Assembly: GCA_965214095.1 (NCBI GenBank)
Contig: OZ243938.1
Coordinates: forward strand, 832,001-896,000
Source: Candidatus Poribacteria bacterium
Lineage (GTDB): Bacteria; Poribacteria; WGA-4E; WGA-3G
DNA length: 64,000 nucleotides
Reading direction: 5' to 3'
Notes under the pieces: model-generated
Told to the model about the DNA's origin: nothing
Database searches by the model: none
Seen by the model: only the letters and a program-made list of their open reading frames with translations
In this document: piece by piece, positions 38,562-64,000 of the stretch
Position numbering within the stretch: the stretch's first letter is position 1
Layout: each line of letters starts with the position of its first letter
Position numbers and translations under genes: made by a program

Positions 38562-38582
38562 GGATTCTCCTACATTGTTATT

Positions 38583-41508: not shown

Positions 41509-41553
41509 TTCAATGTCGGCTCCTTAGGGTTTGTGCTGCCTTAGAGTATGAAA

Positions 41554-45611: not shown

Positions 45612-47408
45612 TCATTCTACTTCTGGAACATTCCACAACTTCACCGTACTATCCCATCCAGCAGTCGCAAGTGTGCGTCCATCCGGAGAATAGGACAGAA
45701 ACCATATCCCTTCAATATGTCCATGCGTATAAGAAGCAATTAATTTACCAGTATTTGCATCACAAAAACAGATCTGATCCTTTTCCCAATATGTATAAGC
45801 GAATGTCTCTCCATTAGGAGAATAAACTACATTACTTGCTTTCTTATCAATTGTCTTTATCGGCTCATCACCATCAACATTCCAAAATTGAAGTTCAATG
45901 TCATTAATACATAGAAAGGTTTTGAAATCTGGAGAAGGTGCAACCGTGTGTCCCTGTACCTTTTTGATGGTTTCTCCAGTAGTTAAATCCCAAAATCGAA
46001 TTTCTCCATCAGTTGAACTGAAAAGTAATTGATCGTCCTGCAAAAATACAAGGTCTTTTATTTCATCTGATTCGGATTCAAGTATCTTCGTGTTTTTACC
46101 AGAAGTAACATCCCACAGATAAACGTTACCATGTTCATCACCACTTGCAAGCATCTTTCCATCAACGGAAAACGCAACAGATGTTATATCATTCAGTTGT
46201 CCTACAAAAGTCTGTTCAATCTCATTTCTTTCAGGATTTAGAATATTTATAGCGTTCTTTCTATCATCTTCATACGCTAATCTTATCCCATCTGGTGCAT
46301 AAGCTATACACCCAACTCTCTGTTTATATAGATGAATTGTTTTTAAGTGCTCACACGTTTGTGTATCCCACAAACGGAGTCTACGAGCACCATCCAATAC
46401 TGCAAGCGTGTTAGAAACAGGTGAATGTGTCATTCGCATAAACATCTGTGCGTATCCATCAAGTGTCCTTGTAGGTGAACCTAATGCAACATCCCAAAAT
46501 CGGATAGTGCCGTCACTGTGTGTATTTGCCAAAGTGTTTCCATCTGGAGAAAATATGACAAAGTAAGTTGTATCTGGTGGACTTTGTATAGTTTTTATTC
46601 GTTCTCCTTTAGTAACATCCCAAAACTGAATCACATCATCATCATAGTTGTTGCTAACGAGTGTTTTCCCATCTGGACTGAAAACAACTGCATTTACTCC
46701 ATCGGCATCCGTAGTAGCAGTTATTGTATTACGTAAGTTTCCTGTATCAGTATCCCAAATCCTGATCTTAGCATCCTGATTTCCACTTGCAAGCCTTCTA
46801 CTATCGTGTGAAAAGGAAATTGATGAAATTGTACCTGTATGTCCTTTAAGTGTGTGCAGGAACTCTCCTGTGTGTGCGTTCCAAAGGTGTATCATTTCAT
46901 CCGTACCATAACTTGCCAGTAACTCTCCGTTTGGTGAACACATCACTTCGGATACATGACCAGCATGTCCAGCAATAGTCAAAATCTGTTTACCTGATGC
47001 AACGTCCCAAAAACGAATTAATTCGTCATTTCCACCGCTAATAAGTATCTGTCTGTCTTGACTAAAAGTTACAGTTCTGACTCTATCATTATGTCCTGAG
47101 AGTGTCAACTGATGTTCGCCCGTTTGGACATCCCATATTATTATTGAGTTATCATTACTCCCGCTTGCCAAGAGTGAATTATCTGGACTAATAGCAACGC
47201 TACTCACACCATCCGTATGTCCTAAAAACAGATTGAGTTCTTTCCCAGTATGTGCATCATAAAGCCAAACACCGATAGTGCTACCCACTGCAAATAGCGA
47301 ACCATCTTTAGAATATGTAATATCAAAAGGATAACCTTTTCCAAGTCGTGCTTTTGCTCCTTCGGGTAATTTCCATTTTGTAACATCTTGATGAAGATTG
47401 TTTTGCAT
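45612..47408 (-). CDS. WD40 protein, array type B3
   Basis: N-terminus identical to B4; body closely matches the WD40 part of 53939-56335. Confidence 0.9.
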   Translation of the reverse strand: MQNNLHQDVTKWKLPEGAKARLGKGYPFDITYSKDGSLFAVGSTIGVWLYDAHTGKELNLFLGHTDGVSSVAISPDNSLLASGSNDNSIIIWDVQTGEHQLTLSGHNDRVRTVTFSQDRQILISGGNDELIRFWDVASGKQILTIAGHAGHVSEVMCSPNGELLASYGTDEMIHLWNAHTGEFLHTLKGHTGTISSISFSHDSRRLASGNQDAKIRIWDTDTGNLRNTITATTDADGVNAVVFSPDGKTLVSNNYDDDVIQFWDVTKGERIKTIQSPPDTTYFVIFSPDGNTLANTHSDGTIRFWDVALGSPTRTLDGYAQMFMRMTHSPVSNTLAVLDGARRLRLWDTQTCEHLKTIHLYKQRVGCIAYAPDGIRLAYEDDRKNAINILNPERNEIEQTFVGQLNDITSVAFSVDGKMLASGDEHGNVYLWDVTSGKNTKILESESDEIKDLVFLQDDQLLFSSTDGEIRFWDLTTGETIKKVQGHTVAPSPDFKTFLCINDIELQFWNVDGDEPIKTIDKKASNVVYSPNGETFAYTYWEKDQICFCDANTGKLIASYTHGHIEGIWFLSYSPDGRTLATAGWDSTVKLWNVPEVE

Positions 47409-47676
47409 AGGAGTTTCTCCATTTTGTTAATTGATGATAAATGGCTGCATGTCGGGTTTCGTGCCTCTACCCGACCTACAAGATTCGTGTGGACAGAACA
47501 GTAGTCGCGCAATTCATTGCGCTTCTTATATTCAAATTCAAATGGGTAAATCATTTATAGAATTGGTAGACATTTGCGGTAAATGATACTCTCAGTATAC
47601 CACAATTACATTGACAGATGCACTCTTCTCCACTTTGTATAACATTGTATAAAAGGCACTTCGTATATTGATATGC

Positions 47677-49518
47677 CTAAAACTTACTCATATCCCACAA
47701 AAGGACAGTTCCATCAGAACTGACACTTGCAACCGTTTCCCCATCAGGCGTATACGTAAGATCATTGATAATCTGTGTATGTCCAGTAAACTTCTGTAGG
47801 AGTTCTCCAGATTGTGCATTCCAAATGTGTACAACTTTTTCATTCTCAGAACTATTCGCCAGCAATCTACCATCAGGAGAACATGCAAGATGCGTTACAA
47901 CTCCGGCATCTGATATTGATGGACGTGTCAATTCACCTGTGGCAACATCCCAAAAACGGATCGTTCCATCCGCACTACCACTTACAACCGTATCCCCATC
48001 AGAAGAAAACACCACGGTATTAACTTCCTTTTCGTGTCCCGTTAACGTTGTAAGGAGAGTCTGACTGTCAACATCCCATATCATGATTGTCATATCATCG
48101 CTTCCACTTGCAACCTTTCTTCCATCAGGAGAAAACGCAACTGAATTGACTTCATCCGTATGTTCATTGAAAGTCATCAAGCAATCTCCTATGAGATAAA
48201 GTTGCCCCTTACAAATCTCCCATAAACATACTTTGTTATCTCTGGTACCGGTCGCGAGCATACATCCATCAGGTGAAATTGCTATAGAAGAAAATTTTGT
48301 TCCATCTCCTCTAAAACTTCCGAGAAACCGACCGGTTGCTACATCCCATAAACGTGCCATGTGCGACCCATTGGAAGGGTACAATGTAACCAGAATTGCA
48401 CAATCATCGGAGAATCTAATTGAATGAACATTATTTCTCTCAAGATACGTGTTCCTTACACTCTTTCCACTCTGTAAATCCCACCACTGTATTCCATCTT
48501 CACTACCACATGTCAGCATACTGCCATCAGGCGAATAAGCAACAGAATAATTTTCTTTTGGACTGTGACCAGCAATATTAATTTTTTGTTCACCTGTCTC
48601 GGCATCCCACATTCGGACCGTGCCATCATCACTCCCACTGGCAATTGTCTCTCCATCAGGTGAATAAGACACCGAAAGCACCTCGTCTCCGTGTGCCATC
48701 CTATTCAGCAGTTCGGTTGTATCAACATTCCATAATTCGACTCTGTCCGAACGGCTGCCTGTCACAAGTCTACGTCCATCTGGTGAAAACTCCATTGACT
48801 TAAACTCACCTACCCACTCTGTATTATTACTGAGTCGTTTACCAGTTTCTAACTCCCAAAACTGCAAAGGCCCATCTCCTGTAGCAAGAATTTTCTGATC
48901 AGGTGAAATGGCAGCAGCATTAAAGTTAGTTTCAAGGTATATCTCTTTCACAATTTCATAGTCTTGTGTATCCCAATAGGCAATTTGTGACTCCTTATTT
49001 TCGGTATTGCCTACGGTAAGAAGATGAGTACTATCAGAAGTATATGTCATAATTGCGTATGACGCAAAATCTGTTAAACAAGATTTTAAAAGCTCACAGG
49101 TACCAACATCCCATACCATGATTTCACCATCTGTACTTGCAAGTTTATCTCCTCTTACATTGAATGTTAAATACTCAACATCATTTTTATGTCCAACACA
49201 AGTGCCTTTTAGCCGACACGTCTTTGTATCCCAAATATGGATTGCTTTGTTTTCACCACTCGTAGCGAAGAATTTTCCATCTGCGCTGAAGGCAATAGTC
49301 GTAACAGGTGTAGTATCCTCTGTCAGTAAGTCAAGTGCTTCTCCTGTTTCTGAATCATAGACCCAGACACCGATGGATGAAACGACAGCCAATCGTTTTC
49401 CATCAGGGAAGAATTTGACTTGATTTATTTTTCCTCTCCCAAAACGGGTTTTTGCACCATCTGGTAATCCTACCTGATCGAGTTTATGAGAAATGGTTGC
49501 ATCGTCGTCTATTAACAT
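47677..49518 (-). CDS. WD40 protein, array type A2
   Basis: QVGLPDGAKTRFGRG leader; WD40 repeats. Confidence 0.9.
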   Translation of the reverse strand: MLIDDDATISHKLDQVGLPDGAKTRFGRGKINQVKFFPDGKRLAVVSSIGVWVYDSETGEALDLLTEDTTPVTTIAFSADGKFFATSGENKAIHIWDTKTCRLKGTCVGHKNDVEYLTFNVRGDKLASTDGEIMVWDVGTCELLKSCLTDFASYAIMTYTSDSTHLLTVGNTENKESQIAYWDTQDYEIVKEIYLETNFNAAAISPDQKILATGDGPLQFWELETGKRLSNNTEWVGEFKSMEFSPDGRRLVTGSRSDRVELWNVDTTELLNRMAHGDEVLSVSYSPDGETIASGSDDGTVRMWDAETGEQKINIAGHSPKENYSVAYSPDGSMLTCGSEDGIQWWDLQSGKSVRNTYLERNNVHSIRFSDDCAILVTLYPSNGSHMARLWDVATGRFLGSFRGDGTKFSSIAISPDGCMLATGTRDNKVCLWEICKGQLYLIGDCLMTFNEHTDEVNSVAFSPDGRKVASGSDDMTIMIWDVDSQTLLTTLTGHEKEVNTVVFSSDGDTVVSGSADGTIRFWDVATGELTRPSISDAGVVTHLACSPDGRLLANSSENEKVVHIWNAQSGELLQKFTGHTQIINDLTYTPDGETVASVSSDGTVLLWDMSKF

Positions 49519-49640
49519 AGCTTGAATTCTCCTTTAACAATACACTTTACTATAACAAAAATCTGTTTGTAGTCGCGCAATTCATTCCGCCTCGGACATT
49601 TCTTCTCCATAGTGAATTTATTTATAGAAATGTGATTAGA

Positions 49641-51452
49641 TCATTCTACTGCTGGAACATTCCACAACTTCACCGTACTATCCCATCCAGCAGTCGCAAG
49701 TGTTTGTCCATCAGGAGAATAGCACAAAAACCATATTTCTTGAATATTTTCATGGGTAAATGCTTCTATTACTACACCGGTGTGAGCATCACAAAAACAG
49801 ATCTGATCTCCTTCAAAAATTGCATACGCGAAAGTCTCTCCATTTGGAGAAAAGGCTATTTCACTTGCCATTTTATCAATTTCAAAAGACTTTATAGGTT
49901 TTTCACCATCTATTTTCCAATATTGAATTTCACCTTGACTTAAACATACAAAAGTATGTGAATCTGGTGAAGATGAGACAAAGCGTCCAGATAACTTTTT
50001 GATGGTTTCTTCAGAAGTTAAATCCCAAATTCTTATCTCTCCACCAATTGAACCGACAAGTAATTGTCCATCAGGCAAAAATGCAAGATTTCTTATATCC
50101 TGCGATTTGGATTCAAGAATCTTCGTGTTTTTGCCAGAAGTAACATCCCAGAGATAAACGTTACCATGTTCATCGCCGCCTGCAAGCGTCTTTCCATCAA
50201 CTGAAAACGCAACGGATGTAATGTCATTCAGAAGTCCTTCAAAAACCTGTTCCTTTTCTCCTGTTTCAGTATTCAAAATATAAACCCAGTTGTTTCTATC
50301 ATCGCCACAAGCCAATCTTATTCCATCTGGTGCAAAAGCACAACAAGTAACTATATGGGGATGTATATAGATATTTTTCATAAGTTTAAATGTCTTTGTA
50401 TCCCACAAATGGAGTCTGGCGAAACCACACAGTACAGCGAGAACATCTTCAACCGGTGAATATGTCATACACCTAAATATTTCTGCGTATCCATCAATTG
50501 CACGTAGTTGTGAACCCTTTGCAACATCCCAAAATCGGATTGGTCCGTCGTCGCTATCTGTAGTAGCTAATGTTTTTCCATCAGGTAAAAAAACGATATT
50601 GCACGTGGAATCTTGTGGACTCTGGATGGATTTTGTGCGTTCACCTTTAGTAACATCCCAGAACTGAATCACATCGTCACGCAAGTTGTTACTGACAAGT
50701 ATATTCTCTGTTGGACTAAACAAAACTGTATTCACCCAATCGTCATTTGTGGTAGCAGTTATTGTATTAAGTAAGTTGCCTGTATCGGTATCCCAAATCC
50801 TGATTTTTCCACCACGTTCTCCAATTGCGAACATTTTACTATCCGTAGAAAAGGAAATGTCAGAAATATAATCTTGATTACCTTTAAGTGTACGGATATA
50901 TTCGCCTGTGTGTGCGTTCCAAAGATGTATCATATTATCACCGCCATAACTTGCAAGTAACTCACCATTTGGTGAACACAGCACTTCGGATACATAGCCA
51001 GCATGTCCGGCAATAGTAAGAATTTGTTGACCTGTAGGAATATCCCAAAAACGAATTAATTCGTCATTTCCACCACTGATAAGTTTCTGTCCATCATGAC
51101 TAAAGGTTACAGATGCGACTCCATCAGTATGTTCTGAGAGTATCATCTTAAGGTTTCCCGATTGGATATCCCATAATCTGATTGTTTTGTCGCTGCTCCC
51201 ACTTGCCAAAAGTGAATTATCCGGACTAAAAGCAACACTGTGTACCCCAGCCGTGTGTTCCAAGAACAGATTGAGTTCCTTGCAAGTATGTGTATCATAA
51301 AGCCATATACCGTAAGTGCCACATGTAGCAAATAGTGAACCATCTTTGGAATATACCATATCAAAAGTACAACCTTTTCCAAGACGTGCTTTTGCTCCTT
51401 CGGGTAATTTCCATTTTGTAACATCTTGTGATTGTAAAGATTCTGCTGTCAT
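49641..51452 (-). CDS. WD40 protein, array type B2 (starts at copy of the sigma-fusion linker)
   Basis: AGAGGAG-N5-ATG at 51452 (MTAESLQSQD); the ORF-track extension to 51530 runs into a REP. Confidence 0.88.
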   Translation of the reverse strand: MTAESLQSQDVTKWKLPEGAKARLGKGCTFDMVYSKDGSLFATCGTYGIWLYDTHTCKELNLFLEHTAGVHSVAFSPDNSLLASGSSDKTIRLWDIQSGNLKMILSEHTDGVASVTFSHDGQKLISGGNDELIRFWDIPTGQQILTIAGHAGYVSEVLCSPNGELLASYGGDNMIHLWNAHTGEYIRTLKGNQDYISDISFSTDSKMFAIGERGGKIRIWDTDTGNLLNTITATTNDDWVNTVLFSPTENILVSNNLRDDVIQFWDVTKGERTKSIQSPQDSTCNIVFLPDGKTLATTDSDDGPIRFWDVAKGSQLRAIDGYAEIFRCMTYSPVEDVLAVLCGFARLHLWDTKTFKLMKNIYIHPHIVTCCAFAPDGIRLACGDDRNNWVYILNTETGEKEQVFEGLLNDITSVAFSVDGKTLAGGDEHGNVYLWDVTSGKNTKILESKSQDIRNLAFLPDGQLLVGSIGGEIRIWDLTSEETIKKLSGRFVSSSPDSHTFVCLSQGEIQYWKIDGEKPIKSFEIDKMASEIAFSPNGETFAYAIFEGDQICFCDAHTGVVIEAFTHENIQEIWFLCYSPDGQTLATAGWDSTVKLWNVPAVE

Positions 51453-51506
51453 AACTTCTCCTCTTTCTGTTTTTACTTCAAATCCGGTAGGTACCCCTCG
51501 TTGTTC

Positions 51507-51880
51507 GTAGTCGCTCAATTCATTGCGCATCTTGCATTAATGGAGAGGTCTCAATCCTTGAGTGCATAGTAGTAGGCACACTCCGTGTGCCGTTCCTTCT
51601 CTTGTTGGAGGGGTTTCCAACCCCAATAGATACCATAAGCGTCATCAGTGTTGATTTGGATTGATTGTTTTTTCAACATCGGTGCAGCTAATCATATCAA
51701 TAGCACGCTGAAACTTCAGACTCATAATCCTGAAAATCTCATAATCCTGAAAATCCTGGTTCAGACAAAAATGAATTACACAAACTTGACATCAATTGTG
51801 CGGTTAGGAAACCGCACATAGACATCAATTTAGTGGTTTATAGTTTGCATGTTTTCTTTAGTCCCGTAGGTACTGAGGAC
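51507..51880. repeat. Mosaic of REP-like palindromes and short repeats
   Basis: GTAGTCGCTCAATTCATTGCGC (51507), GTAGTAGGCACACTCCGTGTGCC (51569), tandem 17-mer CTCATAATCCTGAAAAT x2 (51721-51754), TGTGCGGTTAGGAAACCGCACA (51797). Confidence 0.75.
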
Positions 51881-51908
51881 ACGCTTAGAATCGCATTTAT
51901 TAATATGC

Positions 51909-53741
51909 CTAAAGCTTACTTACATCCCACAAAAGGACAGTCCCATCAGAACTCACACTTGCAACCGTTTCCCCATCCGGAGAAAACGCAACATCATTGA
52001 TGTTTTGTGTATGTCCAGCAAACGTCTCTAGGCGTTTGCCAGAATGTACATCCCAAATGTGTACAACTTTCTCATTCTCAGAACTATTTGCAAGCAACCT
52101 GCCATCAGGAGAACATGCAAGATGCGTTACAACTCCCGCATCTGATATCGGTGTCCGTGTCAACTCACCTGTGGTAACATCCCAAAAACGGAGTGTTCCA
52201 TCTGCACTACCACTTACAAGTGTATCGCCATAAGAAGAAAACACCACGTTATTAACTTCCTTTTCGTGTCCAGTTAACGTTCTAAGGTGAGTCTGACTGC
52301 CAACATCCCATATCATGATTGTCTTGTCATCGCTGCTACTTGCAAGCATTTTTCCATCTGGAGAAAACGCAACTGAATTGACTTTATCCGTATGTTCACT
52401 GAAAGTCATCAAGCGATCTCCAATGAGATAAAGTTGCCCCTTACAAATCTCCCATATACATACTTTGTTATCTCTGGTACCAGTCGCGAGCATACATCCA
52501 TCAGGTGAAATTGCTATAGAAGAAAATTTTGTTCCATCTCCTCTAAAACTTCCGAGAAACCGACCAGTTGCTACATCCCACAAACGCGCTTTGTTAGAAG
52601 AATCTCTTGTCACAAGCATGTTTCCATCTGCTGAAAATATGATTGAATGGACATCCGATTGCCGAACAAAGGTAGTATTTATCTGTTTGCTATTTTGTAA
52701 ATCCCACCACTGGACTTCGTTTTCTCCACCACAAGTCAACGTTTTCCCGTCAGGAGAAAATGCTACAGAATAGAGTTCCATTGGTCTGTGATCAAGTATG
52801 GTAATATTTACTTCACCTGTGTTTGCATCCCACATTCGGACCGTGCCATCATCACTGCCACTGGCAATTGTCTCTCCATCAGGTGAATACGATATTGAAA
52901 CCACCTCGTCTCCGTGTGCCATACTGATCAGTAGTTCTGCTGTATCAACATCCCAAACATCGACTCTGTCCCAACGGCTACCAGTCACAAGTTTTCTTCC
53001 GTCAGGTGAAAATTCCATAGATTTAAACTCACCAACCCACTCCGTATTATTACTGAGTCGTTTACCGGTTTCTAATGCCCAAAACTGCAGAGGACCATCT
53101 CCTGTTGCAAGTATTTTCTGGTCTGTTGAAATGGCAGCAGCATTAAAGTTAGTTTCAAGGGACATCTCTTTCACAATTTCATAGTCTTGTGTATCCCAAT
53201 ATGCAATTTGTGACTCCTTATTAGCGGTATTGCCTACGGTAAGAAGATGTGTACTATCAGAAGTATATGTCATAATTGCATCTGACGAAAAATCTGTTAA
53301 ACATGTCTTTAGAAGTTGACAGGTACCAACATCCCATATCATGATTCCCCCACTTGTACTTGCCAGTTTATCTCCTCTCCCATTGAATGTTAAATACTCA
53401 ACATCATCTTTATTTCCAACACAAGTACCTTTGAGCAGACACGTCTTAGTATCCCAAATTTGGATTGCTTTGTTCTCACCACTCGTAGCGAAGAATTTTC
53501 CATCTGAGCTGAAGGCAATAGTCGTAACAGGTGCAGTATCCTCTGTTAGTAAGTCAAGTGCTTCTCCTGTTTCTGAATCATAGATCCAGACACCGATGGA
53601 TGAAACAACAGCCAATCGTTTTCCATCGGGGAAAAACTTTACTTGACTTATTTTTCCTCTCCCAAAACGGGTTTTTGCACCATCTGGTAATCCTACCTGT
53701 GCATTTTTATGAGTGAAAGTAGTGTCTTCGTTTATTTCCAT
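51909..53741 (-). CDS. WD40 protein, array type A1
   Basis: QVGLPDGAKTRFGRG leader; WD40 repeats. Confidence 0.9.
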   Translation of the reverse strand: MEINEDTTFTHKNAQVGLPDGAKTRFGRGKISQVKFFPDGKRLAVVSSIGVWIYDSETGEALDLLTEDTAPVTTIAFSSDGKFFATSGENKAIQIWDTKTCLLKGTCVGNKDDVEYLTFNGRGDKLASTSGGIMIWDVGTCQLLKTCLTDFSSDAIMTYTSDSTHLLTVGNTANKESQIAYWDTQDYEIVKEMSLETNFNAAAISTDQKILATGDGPLQFWALETGKRLSNNTEWVGEFKSMEFSPDGRKLVTGSRWDRVDVWDVDTAELLISMAHGDEVVSISYSPDGETIASGSDDGTVRMWDANTGEVNITILDHRPMELYSVAFSPDGKTLTCGGENEVQWWDLQNSKQINTTFVRQSDVHSIIFSADGNMLVTRDSSNKARLWDVATGRFLGSFRGDGTKFSSIAISPDGCMLATGTRDNKVCIWEICKGQLYLIGDRLMTFSEHTDKVNSVAFSPDGKMLASSSDDKTIMIWDVGSQTHLRTLTGHEKEVNNVVFSSYGDTLVSGSADGTLRFWDVTTGELTRTPISDAGVVTHLACSPDGRLLANSSENEKVVHIWDVHSGKRLETFAGHTQNINDVAFSPDGETVASVSSDGTVLLWDVSKL

Positions 53742-53825
53742 CTAATAGGATCTCCTTTTTGTAGTTTGAATATTAGTCGTGTGTTGGTGTCTTTAGTCTC
53801 ATAGGAATGATATGTTAATTGTACT

Positions 53826-53897
53826 ATGTCGTTCCTACGGAACTCAAAGTTGTTGGGGACAAATGTATTCTATAGACATATCGTCCCTACGGGACTA
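53826..53897. repeat. Pair of REP-like palindromes
   Basis: ATGTCGTTCCTACGGAACT and ATATCGTCCCTACGGGACT, about 50 bp apart. Confidence 0.6.
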
Positions 53898-53938
53898 AAG
53901 AGTGTTTTCAGACCAAAATTGCTTATACCTAACTCACG

Positions 53939-56335
53939 TTATATTACATCATATTCTACTTCTGGAACATTCCACAACTTCACCGTACTATCCCATCCAG
54001 CAGTCGCAAGTGTGCGTCCATCTGGAGAATAGGACAGAAACCATATTCCTTCTATATGTCCATGTGTATAAGAAGCAATTACTTTACCAGTATTTGCATT
54101 ACAAAAACAGATCTGATCCTCTTCCCAATGCGTATAAGCGAAAGTCTCTCCATTAGGAGAATAGACTACATTACTCGCTTTCTTATCAATTGTCTTTATC
54201 GGCTTATCACCATCAACATTCCAAAATTGAAGTTCAAAGTCATTAATACATAGAAAAGTTTTGAAATCTGGAGAAGGTGCAACCGTGTGTCCCTGTGCCT
54301 TTTTGATGGTTTCTCCAGTAGTCAAATCCCAGAATCGAACCTCTCCATCAGTTGAACCGGCAAGCAATTGTCCATCCTTTGAAAACACAAGATTTCTTAT
54401 TTCAAGCGACATGGATTCGAGCATCTTCGTGCTTTTGCCAGAAGTAACATCCCACAGACAAACGTTTCCATGTTCATCGCCACTTGCAAGCATCTTTCCA
54501 TCAGCTGAAAACACAACTGATGTAATGCCATTCAAATGTTCTATAAAAGTCCGTTCTATCTCATTTTTTTCAGGATTTAGAATATTTATAGTGTTGTTTC
54601 GTTCATCTCTATAAGCTAACCTTATTCCATCTGGTGCATAGGCTATACAACCGACTCTCTGTTTATATAGATGAATTGTTTTCAAGTGCTCACACGTTTG
54701 TGTATCCCACAAACGGAGTCTACGATCACCATCCAATACTGCAAGCGTGTTGGAAACAGGTGAATGCGTCATAAATACATACATCTGTGCGTATCCATCA
54801 AGCGTCCTTGTAGGTGAACCTGATGCAACATCCCAAAATCGGATAGTGCCGTCAGAGTGACTGTTTGCCAAAGTGTTTCCATCTGGAGAAAATGCAATGT
54901 AGTAAGTTGTATCTGGTGGACTTTGAATAGTTTTTGTTTGTTCTGCTTTAGTAACATCCCAAAACTGTATCACATCATCATTGTAGTTGTTGCTAACGAG
55001 TGTATTCCCATCTGGACTGAAAACAACTGCATTTACGCCATCGGCATCCGTAGTAGCAGTTATTGTATTGCGTATGTTTCCTGTATCAGTATTCCAAATT
55101 CTGATCTTACCATCCTGATTTCCACTTGCAAGCCTTCTACTATCGGGTGAAAAAGAAATTGATGAAACTGAACCTGAATGTTTTGTAAGTGTGTGCAGGA
55201 ATTCTCCCGTGTGTGCGTTCCACAGATGTATCATTTTATCTGTCCCATAACTTGCAAGTAACTCTCCGTTTGACGAACACATTACTTCGGATACACCTCC
55301 AGCATGTCCAGCAATAGTCAACATCTGTTTGCCTGATGCAACGTCCCAAAAATAAATCAATTCATCATCTCCGCCGCTAATAAGTATCTGTCCATCTTGA
55401 CTAAAAGTTAAAGATCTTACACCATCAGTATGTCCTGAGAGTGTCAACTTAAGGTCACCCGTTTGGAGATCCCTTAATGTAATTTTATTGTCTTCACCAT
55501 CATTCGCCAAGAGTGAATTATCAGGACTAATTGCAACACTGTGAACCCCTTCCGTGTGTTCCAAAAACAGATTGAGTTCTTTCCCAGTATGTGCATCATA
55601 AAGCCAAACACCGATAGTGCTTGCTGCTGCAAATAGCGAACCATCTTTGGAATATGTAATATCAAAAGGATAACCTTTTCCAAGTCGTGCTTTTGCACCA
55701 TCAGGTAATTTCCAACTTGTAACATCTTGTGATTGTAAAGATTCTGCTGTCATAACTTCTCCTCTTTCTGTTTCTACGCCAAACTCCTGTCGTAGCAGTG
55801 TGCGAATATCTCTTAATCTACTCTTTACTGTACCTGCAGGCATCTTGAATTTCTCAGCAATTTCTCTGATATTCCATAATTCCAAGTAGTATAATTCCGC
55901 AACAGAACGCACTTTCTTTGGCAACTGATGTATCGCTTCTTTAACATCGGTGATTAGTTGCGTATTGTAATATCGCCTTGTAGCGTCTTGATCAATATGT
56001 TCCACCAATACGGACTCCTGATGAGGTATTTCACTATATCTATGATGTGTTGTTTTATAATACCGTTTGCATGCGTTGAGTGCGATGCGGTGTAGCCACG
56101 GTCCAAAACTATCAACATTTCTCAATCCAGTGATATTTTGCCACACAGACATCCAAATGTCATTACTAATCTCTTCGGCATCTTGGAGATGTCTTGAATT
56201 AGCGACAATGACACGCCAAATCCGAGGTGTATAACGGGTCATGAGTTCTGCAAAGGCTGCTTCATCCCTGTCTTGAACGAGTTGAATCAGTTCTGTATCT
56301 GCAAGGTCACTGAACACCAGAAACTCATTGGTCAT
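53939..56335 (-). CDS. ECF sigma factor-WD40 fusion (array type B1)
   Basis: Region 2 DAEEI..DIW...SFGPWLHRIALN; region 4 LPKKVR...EIA.....GTVKSRL; then LPDGAKARLGKG and WD40 repeats; no TM segment. Confidence 0.92.
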   Translation of the reverse strand: MTNEFLVFSDLADTELIQLVQDRDEAAFAELMTRYTPRIWRVIVANSRHLQDAEEISNDIWMSVWQNITGLRNVDSFGPWLHRIALNACKRYYKTTHHRYSEIPHQESVLVEHIDQDATRRYYNTQLITDVKEAIHQLPKKVRSVAELYYLELWNIREIAEKFKMPAGTVKSRLRDIRTLLRQEFGVETERGEVMTAESLQSQDVTSWKLPDGAKARLGKGYPFDITYSKDGSLFAAASTIGVWLYDAHTGKELNLFLEHTEGVHSVAISPDNSLLANDGEDNKITLRDLQTGDLKLTLSGHTDGVRSLTFSQDGQILISGGDDELIYFWDVASGKQMLTIAGHAGGVSEVMCSSNGELLASYGTDKMIHLWNAHTGEFLHTLTKHSGSVSSISFSPDSRRLASGNQDGKIRIWNTDTGNIRNTITATTDADGVNAVVFSPDGNTLVSNNYNDDVIQFWDVTKAEQTKTIQSPPDTTYYIAFSPDGNTLANSHSDGTIRFWDVASGSPTRTLDGYAQMYVFMTHSPVSNTLAVLDGDRRLRLWDTQTCEHLKTIHLYKQRVGCIAYAPDGIRLAYRDERNNTINILNPEKNEIERTFIEHLNGITSVVFSADGKMLASGDEHGNVCLWDVTSGKSTKMLESMSLEIRNLVFSKDGQLLAGSTDGEVRFWDLTTGETIKKAQGHTVAPSPDFKTFLCINDFELQFWNVDGDKPIKTIDKKASNVVYSPNGETFAYTHWEEDQICFCNANTGKVIASYTHGHIEGIWFLSYSPDGRTLATAGWDSTVKLWNVPEVEYDVI

Positions 56336-56380
56336 AAACAGATATCCAATTAGACAAATAATGTAATTTGAGAAGGATGA

Positions 56381-59064
56381 CTATAGATACGGTTTACAAT
56401 CCCATACAAGAATTGTACCGTTCCTACAACCTGTAGCAAGCATTGTGCCATTTGGTGAGAAAGCCATTGAATGCACGAACGAATTATGTCCATTAAATGC
56501 ATGAATTTGTTTGCCTGAAGATATATCCCATATCCGTATTGTCAAATTCTCTCGGTCCTTATTCCGCCAAGTTGCTCCTGCAAGATACTTACTGCACGCT
56601 GAAAACACTAATGGACATGTCTTTCGGTAGCCTTCATTTTGAGGAATTACGCGAACTGTTTTATACTCCTTAGCACACCACAAACGGAATTCTTGGTTTA
56701 ATTCTCCAGCAATCAGATTACCACATGGAGAAAGACAATATCTAATGGATCGCTTGGTGTTTCCATAACTAATTCTGCAATCTCCTTACCCAAATCAACA
56801 TCCCATACTCTTGCAGTGTTATCCTTTGATCCACTCACTATTCGTTTCCCATCAGGTGAAAATGCTAATGACAATATTTCATCAGAATGACCAGTAAAAT
56901 GCATCGGACTCTCAGGATTTTCAAAATGCCACACATACACTGTCCAATCTTTGCCTCCAACAGCGAGTTGATCTCCAGACGGTGCAAAAACCTTAGGATG
57001 ATACCGTTCTCTCAGTACAGATGCTGTTTTGATCTTTACCTTAAGTTTTTCTGGATTATTGACATCCCATATCTTCGTCTCATCATCATAATTCATTGCA
57101 AGTATTTCTCCAGAAGGTAAAAGGGTCATAGCACTTATCCATTCACCTTTGAGAAATACATCTTGGACACATTTCTTGTCAACATCCCATAATGCGAAAC
57201 CTAGTCTTAGATTGCTTGCCAGTGTGTGATCATCAACCCACATCACCTTCGGTTCTGACCACGGGAGCTGTGGCTCTTGTCCTAAAGTGATAGTAGGTAT
57301 TCCATCATCTATATGATTGATAGGCGAGTTATTTGTGAAGTGTTTTGCTTGGGCAATGGCTATAGATTTTGCAAAGCCATAACCTCCTATACCTACAGAT
57401 ATCTCAAGTAACTTTTCTCTATTTTCAACATTCCACACTTCTATAGGCTTGGATGAACTATAATACACTAATGCAAATAACCTGCCATCTTCTGTGTAAA
57501 ACGGATCGTCAAAATTTGGGAATTCCGTTTTCTGTGTTCCTGATGCGAGATCCCATACCCGTAATGTTCCATCACTGGATGCAACGAATTGTCCACAAGG
57601 TGAAATAGTGACTGCATCTACCCAATCCTCATGACCTGAAAAGTGTGCTATTTGTTCTCCAGATGTTATATCCCACACTGATACACAACGGTCAATACGT
57701 TTATCATCTTTCAAAGTTTCGTCGGAAACTGCTCCAGCTATCAGGTGACTATCTGAAGAAAAAACAAATTCTCTACCCACAAATTTGATAATTTGCTTAC
57801 CTGTTTTGGGATCCCAAACGTAAGTCTGAGTTCCCTCTGTATCAGGATTCAGGCATACATTATCGTCATTGTACACTTTTGAATTCCCAGCAGTCGCTGC
57901 GAGTAAGTTGCCATCTGGTGAAAACTCAAGCTGCACTATATCATTTGATTTCCATTCATGATTTCCGCGATCCATCTGTGCGATACGTGTCCCATTCTGA
58001 ATATCTAAAACTGTAACAATACCGTCACCTTCAGCAGCAGCAACCCATTTGCCATTGGAAGAACAAGCGAGTTCAGCAAAAGCATCTTGATCCTCTATTT
58101 GTAGAACACACTTTCCACTCTGGACATCATATACCTTGAGGATGTTGTCAAGAGTATCTGCCACAATCCATTTGCTGTCATGAGAAAACGCAATAGAAAA
58201 GATACCGTGTTGTGGTTCCCATAACGAAATCGGTAACATTGTTGACGTATCATACCACCACAACCCCATTCCAGTACCTACTGCAATACACGTTCCATCG
58301 GGTGAGAGTTTGATATCATCTATACTACCCTTACCGAATCGGACAATTACGTCCTCTGGTAGAGCCCAAGTATTTCCAGATGGATCGTCTGCTATTGCGT
58401 TTAGCATTTTAGGTTTTAGGTTATGTGTCACTTCGCCATTTGACTTACTTGATTGATGTGTACGATCGGTAATTTTTTCCTTGTTTCTTCCTCTTGATGG
58501 ATCGACACCAAATTCCTTTCGCAAAAGTTCGCGTGTTTCCCTTAACTTTGTTTTCACTGTGCCTTCGGTCAGTGTGAACTCAGCTGCAATGTCCTTAACA
58601 CTCCACGACTCTAAGTAATACAATTCTGCCACTGAACGCACCTTTTGTGGAAGGTGATGAACCGCTTCCTTGGCATCAGCAATTAACTGCATGTTTCTAA
58701 ACCGTGCAGTAGCTGCTTGATCTATATGTTCAATTATCTCAGAATGTAGATGTGGGATTTCACTTCGTGCTTGTCTTGCCAAGGTGTAATAACGTTTGCA
58801 TGCGTTGAGTGCGATGCGGTGTAGCCACGGTCCAAAACTATCAACATTTCTCAATCCAGTGATGTTTTGCCAAACAGATATCCAGATGTCAGCATGTATT
58901 TCTTCTGCATCTTGCCGTTGTCTTGAATTAGAAGAGATTATCCCCCAAATTCTATGCGAATAACGTGACATCAGTTCCGCAAGAGCTGATTCATTTCTAT
59001 TCTGTACAAGCTGAATAAGTTCTGCATCTGTTAGGTCACTCAAAGCAAGAAAATTGTTGGACAT
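56381..59064 (-). pseudogene. ECF sigma-WD40 fusion with a 1-bp frameshift near the 3' end
   Basis: Restoring one base in the run at 56731-56733 turns DIVFLHVVI* into DIVFSPCGNLIAG and joins ORF 56381-56683 (about 894 aa); may be a sequencing error. Confidence 0.8.
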
Positions 59065-59097
59065 AAAAACAGATTCCTGAGCCAGTTTTAATGTATA

Positions 59098-59124
59098 GAG
59101 GAGAGTTTTATAGTAAAAGGTTTA
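59098..59124 (-). promoter_or_regulatory. Putative ECF-type promoter
   Basis: TAAACC(TTT)-N17-CCTC(TATA), with the same spacing as the motif at 62004-62031. Confidence 0.35.
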
Positions 59125-59160
59125 AAAAAATAAAAATCGTATTTTGTAATTTTATGACAA

Positions 59161-61767
59161 TCACAGATAAGGTGTTAGGTCCCAAAGCAGGATAGTGCCT
59201 TCATGGCTTGCACTGGCTAAGAGTTTGTTGTCTGGAGAGAAGGCGAGTGCATGTATATCTGTCGTATGTCCCCGAAATGTGGCAAGATGCTTACCACTCG
59301 CGACTTCCCACAAACAGATTGGAAAGTTCTTTGTCTTGTTGTTCCAAGATGCTTCATTTACAATGTACTGTCCGCACGAAGAAAACACAGGAGAATCAAC
59401 ATGTGCACATTCTTCGGGCAGCGACAACATCTTCTCAAGCAGAAAGCGTTTCATTCCGTACAAGTTTTCGTCATCTTTGCAGGCCTTACGAGATCTGATA
59501 TCCCAAATTAGCATGTTTTCTTTTCCACTACAACTAAGGTACCGCTCACACGGAGAAAATTCGATGATTCCCGTTACGTTATCACTTGGAAACGTTTCTA
59601 CCTTTTCACCAAGTTCCATATCCCACAGTCTGACATTATTAGACTTTGATTCACTTGCGAGTAATTTTCCATCATGACTGAATTTCAAGGTATCAACAAA
59701 ATCACCATCATCTTCGTCATCGTTGTTATCACTTGGTTCAAGGGGATGTGTTAGTTCGTACATTTTTTTTTCATTTTGCACATCCCAAACATGTAAATTG
59801 CCATCTCCGTCTGCATAGGCGAATAGTGTGCCTGTTGGTGCTAATGCAGGATGTGCACTCCAATATTCTCGTCCCGTTGCTTCAATAAGTGGTATTCCAT
59901 TGCATTCAGTTTCCCAAAGATTAACAGTCTCGTCTTGGATACTTGCGACATAGAGTTTACCGCTATTGGTTTTATATACAAACTGATTTTTTCCAGCAGA
60001 TACCTCTTTAATTGCTGGACGCGAACGTTTACTTTCAATATCCCACAATACGACACCTTCTTGATAGTGTTTCACTGCTAACGTCTTTCCATCTCCGGAG
60101 AATATCATTGAATCAGGGAAGGAGATAGGAGAATGTATGAATTGGCGTTTGACAGGATTGTCAGTAGTCCATACATTTACATATTCATGTCTACGTTCGT
60201 AGGCAAGTTGTGAGCCGTTTGAAAATATGACATTATTTCCCCATTCAAATATTGAGCAGAATTCTGTTGCAGTCTGTCCCCATACTTCGTCGATGTATAA
60301 CATCTCATTACTTTCAAGATCACGGACTGAGATAGTAGTTGGACCTGTATCGTCATAATGGACAACCGCTGCGCGTAAAACGCCGTCTGGTGTATAGGAA
60401 GGCACAATACGATACACGTGACCATAATCAGTATATGTCTCAGCTTTTTGCCACGTATTGACATCCCAGACGTACACTGTGCCATCTTCACCACCAGAAG
60501 CGAGGAACTGTCCACACGGTGAAAAGCAGAGAGTCGTGACCCAATATTTATGTGCTGATAGGCACGCAATTTGTTCGCTACTTTCCATACTCCACACTAC
60601 TATTGACTCTGCATCGTCAGAGGTAGCGGAACTACACGTAGACGCTATCAATCGAGCATCGGGTGAGAAACAAATAGGACGGTAGTAGCCGCCTTTTTCA
60701 ATGTCTGCAGTCAATCTGGCAAAAGGTTTACCGGTTTCTACATGCCAAACTTCAACAACAGAAGTATTCCAATATGCAACGGCAATATATCGATTATCGT
60801 GGGAAAAGGTCATTCCTTCTAAGAAAGTCTCTGATTTGACCTGTGTCAAGCATGTGCCATCCTGGACATTCAAAATCTTAAGTATTCGATCTGAAAAACT
60901 AGCAGCTATCCATTTTCCGTTAGGTGAAAAAGTAACAGATTCAACTACTCCCCGTTCTACCTCATAAAGTGCGACAGGTGAAAGCGTTGCGAGGTCATAT
61001 ATCCAAAGTCCTATGCAGGTGCCAATAGCAAGATACTGTCCATCAGGTGAGAACGCCATTTTAGGTTCACTTCCGCGTCCTAATCTTGCAATCGCACCTT
61101 CAGGGAGTGCCCAGGTTGTTACATCACCTTCAAATGAACCTACCGGCACGGGAGTTGAAGTGTCTTGGTTTTCCATAAAACTGTCTCCTTGTCCTTGATA
61201 AAGGTCATCTTGCAATATAAGTTCTTCCTGTTTTAGACGATTTCGCGCTCGGTTGAGCCGACTTTTTACCGTGTTCAGAGATACACCTAAAGCCTCACTA
61301 ATGGCTTTACAAGACATTTCTCCGAGATAGTGGAGGATCATCGTTGTGCATTCTGTCCCCGGCAACATTTCCAGAAGGTTATAAACGATTTCGCTACGAC
61401 GTTCTGCGGATGCTTTTTCACGTTGTTCTGCTACATAAGAGACATAAGCAGTTTTTTCCAATATTTCTTCACTGGTAATATCCAGCGATTGCATCACAAT
61501 TCTTTTCTTTCGCAGACATGCTATACACTGCCGATTTGCAATCGTAAAGAGCCATCCAGAAAACCGATTCGGATCTTGTAGGGTAGGTAGTTTTTTGTAT
61601 ACTTGAAGGAATGTATCTTGAGTTATTTCCTCTGCAATATGATAATCACCGACTTTACGCCATGCAAACGTATGTACACTATGACGATATCTGTTAACTA
61701 AATCACTAAATGCCCCTTCGTCACCTGACAATATATCATAAATCAATTGAACGTCATCTTTTACCAT
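59161..61767 (-). CDS. ECF sigma factor-WD40 fusion
   Basis: AEEITQDTFLQVY...FSGWLFTIANR; LP......ILHYL..MS...IS..LGVSLNTVKSRLNRAR; LPEGAIARLGRG; WD40 repeats; AGGAG RBS. Confidence 0.92.
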   Translation of the reverse strand: MVKDDVQLIYDILSGDEGAFSDLVNRYRHSVHTFAWRKVGDYHIAEEITQDTFLQVYKKLPTLQDPNRFSGWLFTIANRQCIACLRKKRIVMQSLDITSEEILEKTAYVSYVAEQREKASAERRSEIVYNLLEMLPGTECTTMILHYLGEMSCKAISEALGVSLNTVKSRLNRARNRLKQEELILQDDLYQGQGDSFMENQDTSTPVPVGSFEGDVTTWALPEGAIARLGRGSEPKMAFSPDGQYLAIGTCIGLWIYDLATLSPVALYEVERGVVESVTFSPNGKWIAASFSDRILKILNVQDGTCLTQVKSETFLEGMTFSHDNRYIAVAYWNTSVVEVWHVETGKPFARLTADIEKGGYYRPICFSPDARLIASTCSSATSDDAESIVVWSMESSEQIACLSAHKYWVTTLCFSPCGQFLASGGEDGTVYVWDVNTWQKAETYTDYGHVYRIVPSYTPDGVLRAAVVHYDDTGPTTISVRDLESNEMLYIDEVWGQTATEFCSIFEWGNNVIFSNGSQLAYERRHEYVNVWTTDNPVKRQFIHSPISFPDSMIFSGDGKTLAVKHYQEGVVLWDIESKRSRPAIKEVSAGKNQFVYKTNSGKLYVASIQDETVNLWETECNGIPLIEATGREYWSAHPALAPTGTLFAYADGDGNLHVWDVQNEKKMYELTHPLEPSDNNDDEDDGDFVDTLKFSHDGKLLASESKSNNVRLWDMELGEKVETFPSDNVTGIIEFSPCERYLSCSGKENMLIWDIRSRKACKDDENLYGMKRFLLEKMLSLPEECAHVDSPVFSSCGQYIVNEASWNNKTKNFPICLWEVASGKHLATFRGHTTDIHALAFSPDNKLLASASHEGTILLWDLTPYL

Positions 61768-61792
61768 CAGAGACTCCTAATACAATCTATTT

Positions 61793-61982
61793 GAGGGGTG
61801 TGCATAAATAAATTATGTGCCTACATTGGCTGCGTCTTTCATCAAGTATTTCTTTATATGTAATTGTCCTCTTTGTAGCAGTATAATCTATTGAGACGTT
61901 TTGATCTTGTGGACGGCACGCGGAGCGTGCCTACTACTTTTAAGACTATATTTGAGATTGCTTTTCTTTATGCACACTTCTC
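61793..61982. mobile_element. MITE (190 bp), family 2, IS256-like ends
   Basis: TIRs GAGGGGTGTGCATAAA / TTTATGCACACTTCTC; perfect 8-bp TSD ATCTATTT at 61785-61792 and 61983-61990. Confidence 0.9.
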
Positions 61983-62003
61983 ATCTATTTACTCATATAT
62001 CAT

Positions 62004-62031
62004 GACGCGATTATTTCTTGGAAAGGTTGCA
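62004..62031 (-). promoter_or_regulatory. Putative ECF-type promoter for the sigma-WD40 gene
   Basis: TGCAACC(TTT)-N17-CGTC fits the general ECF AAC/CGT consensus. Confidence 0.5.
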
Positions 62032-62200
62032 GAGTTGACATATATTCAAAGATTATTTGCGTGAGTTCGGTATCAGTAGTTTTAGTAGCGGTAACTTTAT
62101 GAAGTTAATTTATTAATAATGAGACAAAATAGAAATGGGTGTTCCATTATACGAACCCAGATCACGTCTTACGCAATGTATTCACGTAGCACTGTTTAAT

Positions 62201-64000
62201 CTACTGTAGAGAGATGAGTTCCCACAGCAAAACGACCCCTCCACTGGCACTCGCGATTGTCCTACCATCCGGACTAAAAGTTACGGCTCCAACCGCACCC
62301 GGGTGTTCTCCAAAAGTCATAATTGATGCATGTGTGCCTACATCCCACAGACGAACGGTTTTATCCCAACTCGTGCTTGCTACCATTTTGCCATCCGGAC
62401 TGAACACAACACTATAAATAATACCTGTGTGCCCATTCATAATTCCAAGTTGATCTCCTGTATGTACATCCCACAAACGCACAGTGAAATCATCACCCGC
62501 ACTCACGATTGTCTCCCCATCTGGACTAATTGCAACACCGTTGATCACTTTTGTATGTCCTCTCATAGTTTGAAGGGGATTTCCTGTATGCACATCCCAT
62601 AAACGAACGATACTATCCCTTCCGCCACCTACGATCATTTTACCATCTGGACTGAAAACGATTTGGTTGAAACCTTCCTTCCCTCCTATAAAGGTTTGAA
62701 GTTGATTTCCTGTCTGAGCATCCCAAATACGAATGGTATGCCAATCCGCGCTTGCTAACTTCTTTCCATCCGGACTATACACGACATCTGCAAATCTGGT
62801 AATTGGGGGTCTGACTCTACTATCAGTCGGAATTAGACGATGGGTGCCTGTTTGTACATTCCATATAGGAAAGGAGTCATCGCCATTTGCAATTGCCAGG
62901 GTCTTTCCATCCGGACTGAACTTAACACTATGTACAAGATTAAGTACACTCTTAGTAGACCCTTTGAAGGTATGAAGAGACATGCCTGTTTGCACATCCC
63001 ATAGTTGAACATTTCCACTTCTACTCCCACATGCCAAGGTCTTTCCATCCGGACTGAACTCAATGCTATATATAGTATCCATGTGCCCGGTAATTGTCTT
63101 AAGAGTTGTGCCATTTTGCACATCCCATAGACGAATAGTTTCACCCCAACTGCTTCCACTCACCAGTGTCTTCCCATCCGGACTAAACACAATGACATTG
63201 ACCATACTACTATGTCCAGTCAACGTCCGAATAGATGTGCTGGTTTGTACATCCCATAGCCGTATAGTTTCATCATAGCTTCCACTTGCTAACATTTTAC
63301 CATCTGGACTAAATACAACATTTGAGATAAACTTTGTATGTCCCTTGAGTGTTGCAAGAGGTTCGCCAGTTCTTACCGTCCAAAGATGGATATTTTCGTC
63401 CAAGTAACATCCACTTGCTAATGTCTTCCCATCTGGACTAAATGATATACTTCTAACATCGCCATTATGTTCTCTCAATATCTGTAACGGTCTACCGGTT
63501 TGCACATCCCAAAGATGTACGGTCTTGTCCATGCCGCCACTTGCGATTATATTACCATCCGGACTAAATGATACACATCTGACTCCACCTATATGCCCTT
63601 TGAATGTTCGTAGAGATTTGCCGGTATGCGCATCCCACACCCGCACAGTTTCGTCATAGCTCCCACTTGCTAACTTTGAACCGTCAGTATTGAATACTAC
63701 GTTTGAGATATGTGCTGTGTGTCCTGTTAGTGTCTGAAGATGTGTCCCTGTGCGCGCATCCCAAATACGTATGGTCTTGTCACCACATCCACCAGCCAAC
63801 GTCTGTCCGTTTGGACTGAAGACGACACTACTGACGTAAGATGTGTGACCAGCGAATAGATTGAGTTCTTTCCCTGTCTGCGCGTCATAGATCCAAATAC
63901 CAATGCTTCCCGAGACCGCAAATATCTTCCCATCAGGATCAGGAGAGTATGCTATCCCATCTATTGTCCCCTTAGCAAGACGAGCTTCTGCACCTACAGG
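62201..64000 (-). CDS. WD40 repeat protein (5' end beyond window)
   Basis: Frame is open to the window edge: PVGAEARLAKG...SPDPDG..; highly regular GH..V..V.FSPDG..LASG..D.TVRLWD repeats. Confidence 0.9.
   Translation of the reverse strand, partial: PVGAEARLAKGTIDGIAYSPDPDGKIFAVSGSIGIWIYDAQTGKELNLFAGHTSYVSSVVFSPNGQTLAGGCGDKTIRIWDARTGTHLQTLTGHTAHISNVVFNTDGSKLASGSYDETVRVWDAHTGKSLRTFKGHIGGVRCVSFSPDGNIIASGGMDKTVHLWDVQTGRPLQILREHNGDVRSISFSPDGKTLASGCYLDENIHLWTVRTGEPLATLKGHTKFISNVVFSPDGKMLASGSYDETIRLWDVQTSTSIRTLTGHSSMVNVIVFSPDGKTLVSGSSWGETIRLWDVQNGTTLKTITGHMDTIYSIEFSPDGKTLACGSRSGNVQLWDVQTGMSLHTFKGSTKSVLNLVHSVKFSPDGKTLAIANGDDSFPIWNVQTGTHRLIPTDSRVRPPITRFADVVYSPDGKKLASADWHTIRIWDAQTGNQLQTFIGGKEGFNQIVFSPDGKMIVGGGRDSIVRLWDVHTGNPLQTMRGHTKVINGVAISPDGETIVSAGDDFTVRLWDVHTGDQLGIMNGHTGIIYSVVFSPDGKMVASTSWDKTVRLWDVGTHASIMTFGEHPGAVGAVTFSPDGRTIASASGGVVLLWELISLQ

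Follow-up and report, generated by a model that had tools for sequence, protein, structure and literature searches.

Does an open reading frame (ORF) that joins an extracytoplasmic function (ECF) sigma factor to a WD40 beta-propeller specify one protein or two? The question is raised by a 64,000-nucleotide stretch of Candidatus Poribacteria DNA (C1:832001–896000, here termed the window) from a 5.2-Mb genome of 41% G+C. Three consecutive long ORFs of the window, P0001, P0002 and P0003, all on the minus strand, encode such fusions, and an earlier note on this DNA had pointed to Shine-Dalgarno-like (SD-like) sequences and in-frame ATG codons where the sigma part meets the propeller. Our comparative analysis favors, with a probability of roughly 0.6, the reading that the internal SD and ATG form a selected in-frame initiation site, inherited from a once-separate downstream gene, and that such a gene would yield both a sigma-propeller and a free propeller.

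Sigma-propeller fusions and their junctions

P0001 (53939–56335; 798 aa) has its ECF sigma domain in residues 1 to ~186, in frame with a WD40 double-propeller region. P0002 (56713–59064; 783 aa) and P0003 (59161–61767; 868 aa) are also ECF sigma-WD40 fusions, P0002 with a degraded internal site in the present genome and P0003 with a sigma domain of a different subfamily, 24–28% identical to those of P0001 and P0002. Pfam places Sigma70_r2 and an r4 domain inside residues ~23–185 of all three proteins (in P0001, Sigma70_r2 at 31–95 and r4_2 at 131–178). PF04542 and PF08281/PF04545 are the sole sigma domains in residues 1 to ~185, so that all three have regions 2 and 4 without region 1.1 or 3, the arrangement that defines ECF (group 4) sigma factors. 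With its cut-off at 42.9 bits, the TIGR02937 (sigma70-ECF) model scores 77, 73 and 92, and it alone passes; none of the more specific NCBIfam sigma models exceeds its own cut-off for P0001–P0003. From ~residue 225 to the end (from ~227 in P0001) the proteins match PF00400 and many beta-propeller families, and in each the transition from sigma to propeller is uninterrupted by a stop. No transmembrane segment was found in P0001–P0003 (no 19-residue window with a Kyte-Doolittle mean of at least 1.6), and domain search found no anti-sigma or zinc-finger domain in the fusions. Judged by sequence, P0001–P0003 are soluble ECF sigma-WD40 fusions, of a family greatly expanded in one Poribacteria family.

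All three junction sites lie 10–17 codons past ECF sigma region 4, directly ahead of the propeller; they sit in the linker, since the sigma domains end at ~185 and the propellers begin after ~225. In P0001 the SD-like AGAGGAG (55759–55765) is followed by the 5-nt spacer AAGTT and the in-frame ATG of Met195 (55751–55753; peptide MTAESLQ), with an SD duplex energy of −9.4 kcal/mol. Initiation at this proposed start would release a free propeller of 604 aa (53939–55753) that begins MTAESLQ. Met195 precedes the motif DVTxWKLPxGAKARLGKG by 9 residues, and in the closest free-standing paralogues this motif is 7–9 residues from the start. P0003 has a different SD-like sequence, AAGGAG (61185–61190), separated by an 8-nt spacer, ACAGTTTT, from the in-frame ATG of Met198 (61174–61176; peptide MENQDT), with a duplex energy of −9.6 kcal/mol; its predicted short product (59161–61176) is a free propeller of 671 aa that begins MENQDT. 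The predicted N-termini of the short products, (M)TAESLQSQDVTSWK after Val194 in P0001 and (M)ENQDTSTPVPVGSFEGDVTTWALPEGAIAR after Phe197 in P0003, are both non-tryptic. The degenerate site of P0002 (58480–58494) has AGAGGA (58494–58489) followed by AGA AAC AAG, so that codon 195 (58482–58480) is AAG and not ATG, and its duplex energy is −6.3 kcal/mol.

These sites agree to the base with the earlier description, which had reported AGAGGAG-N5-ATG at Met195 of P0001 (nt 55753), AAGGAG-N8-ATG at Met198 of P0003 (nt 61176), and, in P0002, AGAGGA with an AAG at codon 195 that is a single base from ATG. P0001 and P0003 have an in-frame start with an SD at working distance, as expected of a gene with internal initiation.

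The 16S rRNA 3' end (...GGATCACCTCCTTTCT) carries the canonical anti-SD, and SD matches are therefore meaningful in this uncultivated organism. Among 3,118 long ORFs, an SD match of at least 5 nt to the consensus precedes 37% of first ATGs, compared with 5.9% of 19,689 internal in-frame ATGs; for a duplex energy of −8 kcal/mol or stronger the figures are 26% and 3.8%. The annotated starts of P0001, P0002 and P0003 score −3.1, −4.3 and −6.8 kcal/mol, respectively. Sigma-domain starts have moderate SDs overall (mean −7.7 kcal/mol), and the internal SDs equal or exceed them in strength. Local mRNA folding (−30 to +33) is also weak at the junctions: the 25 sites there average −6.0 kcal/mol, and 501 further internal ATGs in these genes −9.7 kcal/mol. 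Part of the difference comes from the purine-rich composition of the linkers.

Conservation of the SD and ATG across Poribacteria

The earlier note named the recurrence of SD and ATG in homologous linkers as a test, and they do recur, though not universally. We collected 37 distinct junction DNAs of the P0001/P0002-type subfamily from many genomes of the genus, three of them from the present genome. An ATG stands 9–10 codons after residue 186 in 36 of the 37, and in 32 the SD, with its GGAG core, reaches −8 kcal/mol or stronger. The sole junction without ATG is P0002 of the present genome. Its orthologues in other genomes have agaggaggagttATG at the equivalent codon (AGAGGAGG-N4-ATG; −12.3 kcal/mol), and since they keep both SD and ATG, the change in P0002 here is a real lineage-specific loss. 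The residues preceding the Met differ (TERGEV, PIRGGV, YIYGGN, VTKGVS, PIEGGI, PQQGDI, PTKENT) and the GGAG core persists; in a fusion to an FtsZ-like protein, described below, the core is shifted to another reading register, AAG GAG. When 14 non-redundant sequences are compared, a conservation island in an otherwise variable linker coincides with the SD (−13 to −6) and the ATG. The spacer contains no stop codon in any of the 37 P0001-type or 59 P0003-type junctions.

A protein search extended this sample to 97 database cluster representatives of the P0001/P0002 subfamily, the few source-named ones being 'sigma-70 family RNA polymerase sigma factor' or hypothetical proteins of Candidatus Poribacteria. 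The Met is kept in 89 of them, +8 to +11 after residue 186 (68 at +9, 20 at +10 and one at +8 or +11). The other eight comprise four with a G-x-x-M shifted by an indel and four with Leu or Val. For P0003, the ATG is present in 13 of 13 orthologues and in 19 of 19 in a wider sample; the SD is −8 kcal/mol or stronger in 8 of the 13, and the GGAG core is present in 13 of the 19.

Synonymous variation was scanned with our own simplified Synplot-like script, which scores codon difference at identical-residue columns of sequence pairs in 12-codon windows and takes as expectation each pair's own rate for the given amino acid. The sequences are related and the scan has no tree correction, so its result is the localization of a dip and not a p-value. 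Among 13 full-length P0003 orthologues, with a mean synonymous difference of 0.33, residues 186–203 show 0.30–0.43 of the expected variation (ranks 2–6, 9 and 11 of 875 windows). Among 18 members of the P0002-orthologue group, scanned over their first 330 codons, codons 183–204 hold every one of the 11 lowest-scoring windows out of 326, with 0.32–0.61 of expectation. The two further marks of a gene with internal initiation, a conserved start and SD and reduced synonymous variability, are thus both found.

The same scan of the 13 P0003 orthologues gave a single other dip of similar depth, to 0.29 of expectation, at residues 690–701 (window 59662–59697). It lies on the WD40 motif FSxDGKLL, has neither ATG nor SD, and could reflect intragenic or inter-paralogue conversion.

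Enrichment at sigma junctions within the genome

The present genome has 37 ORFs of at least 450 codons that open with a related ECF sigma domain. We defined a junction window in each, reaching from 5 codons ahead of the end of region 4 to 45 codons past it, and counted an ATG as strong where its SD was −8 kcal/mol or stronger. Strong SD and ATG pairs occur in the junction windows of 25 of the 37 ORFs, though these are paralogues, many in recent tandem clusters, and the 25 are not independent events. The control frequencies are 22 of 589 other 50-codon windows in the same ORFs (3.7%) and 241 of 7,107 windows in other long ORFs (3.4%).

The solutions at the junction vary among paralogues in both sequence and position. 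In membrane-type paralogues it is K-E-E-x-M, encoded AAGGAGGAAnnnATG, right where region 4 ends; the P0001-type solution, R-G-E-V-M, comes 10 codons later, that of P0003, Q-G-D-x-x-M, 13 codons later, and that of a DnaN-like fusion, G-G-I-G-M, 24 codons later. Codon choice in the membrane-type motif departs from genome usage (30% AAG and 25% GAG): AAG encodes the Lys in 22 of 23 cases, and GAG the first Glu in 22 of 29. Elsewhere in the same alignment AAG ranges from 1/28 to 16/27 at other Lys columns, and the neighboring Leu, Ile and Arg codons are free to vary. Two other Glu columns are likewise GAG-rich, which leaves the Lys column as the clearer signal.

Other fusion partners

Two sigma fusions have partners other than propellers. 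In the present genome (G000) an ECF sigma domain is in frame with a complete, three-domain DNA polymerase III beta-clamp (DnaN-like; L081, C1:2353658–2355505, with orthologues L094–L100). The junction is found in eight genomes of the genus; the full-length ORF is intact in about four and truncated or split in the others. GGAGG-N7-ATG is present in all eight, at the DnaN start, and the linker upstream of it varies, with an in-frame 4-codon deletion in one genome. A P0001-type ECF sigma domain is likewise in frame with an FtsZ-like protein (Tubulin GTPase plus FtsZ_C; L078, G000 C1:4552337–4554121, with the relative L067), the junction being AAAGGAG-N6-ATG.

Fusion to such proteins might have suggested that the internal start must work for an essential gene to be expressed. 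This argument was rejected: the fused DnaN-like and FtsZ-like proteins are extra paralogues, and canonical dnaN and ftsZ genes, two copies of each, are found elsewhere. The two canonical dnaN genes, at C1:5142298 and C1:5143517, adjoin two sigma-WD40 fusions, and an FtsZ fragment at C1:1883481–1884073 adjoins another sigma-fusion cluster.

Sigma-fusion clusters in G000 include C1:3228962–3285826, 4865862–4890392 and 5145199–5150847. Among 61 genomes searched, those of two genera (g1 and g9) of the window's family mostly have ~20–50 matches per genome, and other families have far fewer. Most members have one transmembrane segment ~35–45 residues past region 4 and, beyond it, WD40, BNR/Sortilin-type or CarboxypepD_reg domains. 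The assembly of G000 also contains a second contig, C2, of 32,066 bases and 64% G+C compared with 41% for the main chromosome, which is probably foreign or contaminant DNA.

Free-standing propellers and a probable origin of the site

The three fusions are followed downstream by a tandem array of eight free-standing genes on the minus strand (36507–53741; ~600–680 aa), which have the propeller N-terminal motif LP(E/D)GAxxRxGxG and their own SD and ATG. Three of the eight match P0001 residues 183–795 by search, at 50–84% identity; the others were placed by the N-terminal motif. One paralogue without a sigma domain (49641–51452, minus strand) has junction DNA identical to that of P0001 (AAACAGAAAGAGGAGAAGTTATGACAGCAGAATC) and a likely start at the ATG at 51452. 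Its ORF extends to 51530, and the homology to P0001 starts ~30 nt upstream of the ATG at 51452; the in-frame ATG further upstream has no SD (+0.3 kcal/mol).

Homologues elsewhere point the same way. In another genome of the genus, one that is 76% identical (L005) begins cagaaaaaggagaagtaATG and is separated by 330 nt from the nuoF-like gene ahead of it; the sigma tail can still be recognized in its leader, Q-K-F-R-I-E-T-E-K-G-E-V. For P0003, homologues of ~680 aa occur in other genomes, and 20 of the 30 with fewer than 60 open upstream codons start at the equivalent ATG; some free-standing homologues keep a sigma-tail relic (IKQEEPILQD...) without a sigma domain. In the P0003 orthologue L048 (genome G019) a TGA interrupts sigma region 4 (SRLNRA*NRLKQEEP) and the propeller ORF has no stop from the conserved ATG onward; the TGA is either a sequencing error or a sign that the sigma domain is decaying while the propeller can still be expressed.

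Identity is uneven along P0001 and its neighbors. Compared with ORF 49641, P0001 is 92% identical in the junction window and 64–86% in the body; compared with ORF 45612, it is 83–96% identical in the body and 75% at the junction. These are therefore mosaic genes, with modules swapped by recombination close to the start. Within the array, a two-gene propeller unit has recently been duplicated in tandem at window positions 41400–49650 (blastn match of 2.4 kb, 90.6% identity); the 60 nt upstream of ORFs 41554 and 45612 are identical, and those of ORFs 43652 and 47677 nearly so.

We propose that the SD and ATG after region 4 would originally have been the ribosome-binding site and start of a separate downstream gene, as they still appear to be in the free-standing paralogues. 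After fusion, purifying selection would have kept them as an in-frame internal initiation site, and one mRNA would then give two proteins: a sigma-propeller from codon 1, and the propeller alone from Met195 (P0001) or Met198 (P0003). In P0002 of the present genome the internal site would have been lost. The statement in the earlier note that each gene may make both products is accordingly too broad, P0002 having no ATG; its core stands, in that the site behaves as a selected start in P0001 and P0003. The alternative offered in that note, a relic of a sigma-stop-WD40 operon that fused, probably describes the origin of the site and is compatible with present use, but no sigma-stop-SD-ATG split intermediate with an intact sigma gene was found among the junctions, the single stop seen (L048) being inside region 4. 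A frameshift or ATGA-overlap arrangement was also considered and rejected: the base after the ATG varies (following codons ACA, CCA, TCT, GCA and CAA), so there is no conserved overlapping TGA.

Is the internal start used?

That ribosomes initiate at the internal ATG of the fused genes is inferred from the comparisons above, and several findings weigh against it. The support is wholly comparative, and conservation of the Met could have a protein-level cause. Five of the 13 P0003 orthologues have weaker SDs (−7.0, −6.5, −6.5, −5.3 and −1.8 kcal/mol). A strong SD and ATG pair is present in just 24 of the 59 cross-genome P0003-type junctions (20 of 560 in controls), and in the sister genus in 2 of 8. 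Membrane-type EExLIRETLG sequences of other genomes have Leu or Ile at the Met position, and P0002 of the present genome combines a missing ATG with a weakened SD. Recent tandem paralogues inflate the within-genome counts, paralogues undergo gene conversion that could homogenize the junction, and purine-rich Gly, Glu, Arg and Lys codons in the linkers favor both SD-like strings and weak folding. Lastly, contigs from RNA libraries (X1 record 2, X3 record 17 and X4 record 22) bridge the junction; such contigs are blind to starts, strand, ends and levels, gaps in their cover carry no meaning, and DNA carry-over is possible. The metatranscriptome contigs make up a small share (0.07) and, being 90–95% alike, come from relatives.

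A consensus promoter and terminator scan of 51500–62300 found no convincing minus-strand promoter just upstream of either internal ATG; in all it returned 40 promoter-like sites, compared with 28.7±6.2 in shuffles.

The competing explanation that survives best is that the site is a pure relic: the fossil start of a formerly separate gene, or a product of gene conversion from free-standing paralogues, unused and persisting because the fusions or conversions are recent. The neighborhood is rich in free-standing paralogues that share the start, P0001 and its neighbors are mosaic, and the site has decayed in P0002 and some P0003 orthologues and is missing from many membrane-type relatives. All of this would be expected of a fossil. 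Against a fossil stand the retention of the ATG in 36 of 37 junctions and of the Met in 89 of 97 representatives, across sigma domains only 50–70% identical and four kinds of partner, and the survival of the SD core through changes of residue and of reading register. Right at the junction, two sets of genes show synonymous variation of ~0.3 of expectation, and in the DnaN-like fusion the frame is held through an indel while GGAGG-N7-ATG stays in eight of eight genomes. We consider disuse of the site unlikely on these grounds.

Less probable again is that the purine-rich SD-like string serves as an elongation pause, or as a low-structure spacer that aids folding of the sigma domain, with the Met merely conserved and no initiation. 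The sites fall precisely where one folding unit gives way to the next, the mRNA around them has little structure, and Gly-, Glu- and Arg-rich linkers naturally contain GGAG. A pause element does not need an ATG at a fixed distance of 4–8 nt, however, and the ATG is the best conserved feature of all; the same ATG is also the only plausible start of the free-standing homologues. SD-induced pausing inside genes is itself disputed.

That the site arose by chance, or as a side effect of the amino acids and codons used, is highly improbable: a gene of 800 codons has ~10–15 internal ATGs, of which ~4% have an SD this strong, so one site somewhere is common, but the same structural position recurs in 25 of 37 genes compared with 3.7% of control windows, the Lys is AAG in 22 of 23 cases compared with a 30% genome average, and cross-genome conservation and synonymous constraint already contradict it.

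A selected internal start, the reading we prefer, also accommodates the upkeep of the fused form. The frame is kept, with no stops and an in-frame indel in the DnaN-like linker, and the sigma domain has a mean column identity of 77%; since both the fused frame and the sigma domain are maintained, both products appear to matter.

Possible roles of two products

A free propeller that acted as a competitor, decoy or mixed-oligomer partner would tune sigma activity, and the earlier note had suggested a decoy or an anti-sigma acting in trans. In the form we would favor, the free propeller would compete or assemble with the sigma-tethered propeller and so set how much sigma is held and how much released. 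This is speculative and, in our estimate, rather doubtful. Complex prediction of the free propeller with the sigma domain, run with two alignments, gave a score of 0.01, which speaks neither for nor against such an interaction. DnaN-like and FtsZ-like partners normally oligomerize, which may be compatible with a role for stoichiometry.

About as tentative is a general scheme in which Poribacteria wire ECF sigmas by "one ORF, two proteins". A sigma factor would exist solely in fusion with an oligomerizing or scaffold-like partner (WD40 propeller, beta-clamp paralogue or FtsZ paralogue), the untethered partner would be made in excess from a conserved internal start on the shared mRNA, and the ratio of tethered to free partner would act as a switch like that of a sigma and its anti-sigma, with no anti-sigma encoded separately. 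Each genome would have dozens of these modules, and recombination at their junctions would shuffle them.

ECF sigmas with C-terminal extensions are regarded as one-component regulators whose extension acts in cis. Internal initiation, if it occurs, would add a translational layer by which the ratio of tethered to free regulatory domain could be adjusted. The passage of propeller modules between fused and free-standing forms in the large WD40 arrays of sponge symbionts would likewise be accounted for, since a module with an SD and ATG of its own works in either setting. For annotation, the caution is that these ~800-aa ORFs may represent two proteins.

Comparison with known systems

By title, we found no prior description in the literature of Poribacteria sigma-WD40 fusions or of internal starts in sigma fusions. 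The parts can be compared with known systems, as far as these are described in the available portions of two sources.

Internal starts are known from E. coli (Meydan et al., bioRxiv 10.1101/520783), where conservation and Synplot2 served as evidence for them. The internal start of arcB is exactly at a domain boundary and releases ArcB-C; infB, clpB and mrcB have further in-frame internal starts that release a C-terminal domain; and the short product of rpnE is 98% identical to that of an independent gene, ypaA. The Poribacteria junctions resemble arcB-type starts in having an in-frame SD-like sequence and start codon at a domain boundary, conserved among orthologues and with reduced synonymous variation, and they resemble rpnE/ypaA in that the short form of the fusion occurs elsewhere as a separate gene. 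They differ in that the output of two products is predicted from sequence and that the omitted N-terminal part is a complete ECF sigma factor. Moreover, arcB-type cases are single genes, whereas the Poribacteria feature recurs in dozens of paralogues, with several fusion partners, in one lineage.

Among sigma factors the closest likeness is to ECF57, an ECF sigma with WD40-like C-terminal repeats for which regulation by protein-protein interaction has been proposed (PMC8999054). P0001–P0003 share its plan, a sigma2 and sigma4 core followed by a long WD40-type extension in one polypeptide. Two conserved cysteines are proposed to link sigma2 and sigma4 in ECF57 (PMC8999054). That pair was not found here: the P0001-type alignment (30 sequences) has one invariant Cys, C89, and among 33 paralogues of the P0003 type a single Cys column is fully conserved (33/33), with no second at 60% or above. 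We therefore say that the fusions work like ECF57, not that they are ECF57. An internal start, as proposed here, and the Poribacteria lineage set them apart from ECF57 as described.

A third comparison is with sigma/anti-sigma fusions activated by regulated proteolysis, namely IutY (ECF243) and ECF48, ECF52 and ECF53 (PMC8999054). Like IutY, the Poribacteria genes place a sigma factor and a regulatory or sensor partner in one ORF, and many paralogues have one transmembrane segment followed by an outside propeller. Unlike IutY, P0001–P0003 have no transmembrane segment between the sigma and C-terminal domains, and the second product is proposed to arise from translation rather than cleavage. 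A second product lacking the sigma part is not considered in the account of extended ECF sigmas in the available portion of that review (PMC8999054). The proposed mechanism combines two known kinds, arcB-type internal starts and ECF57-like sigma-WD40 fusions, in a new variant.

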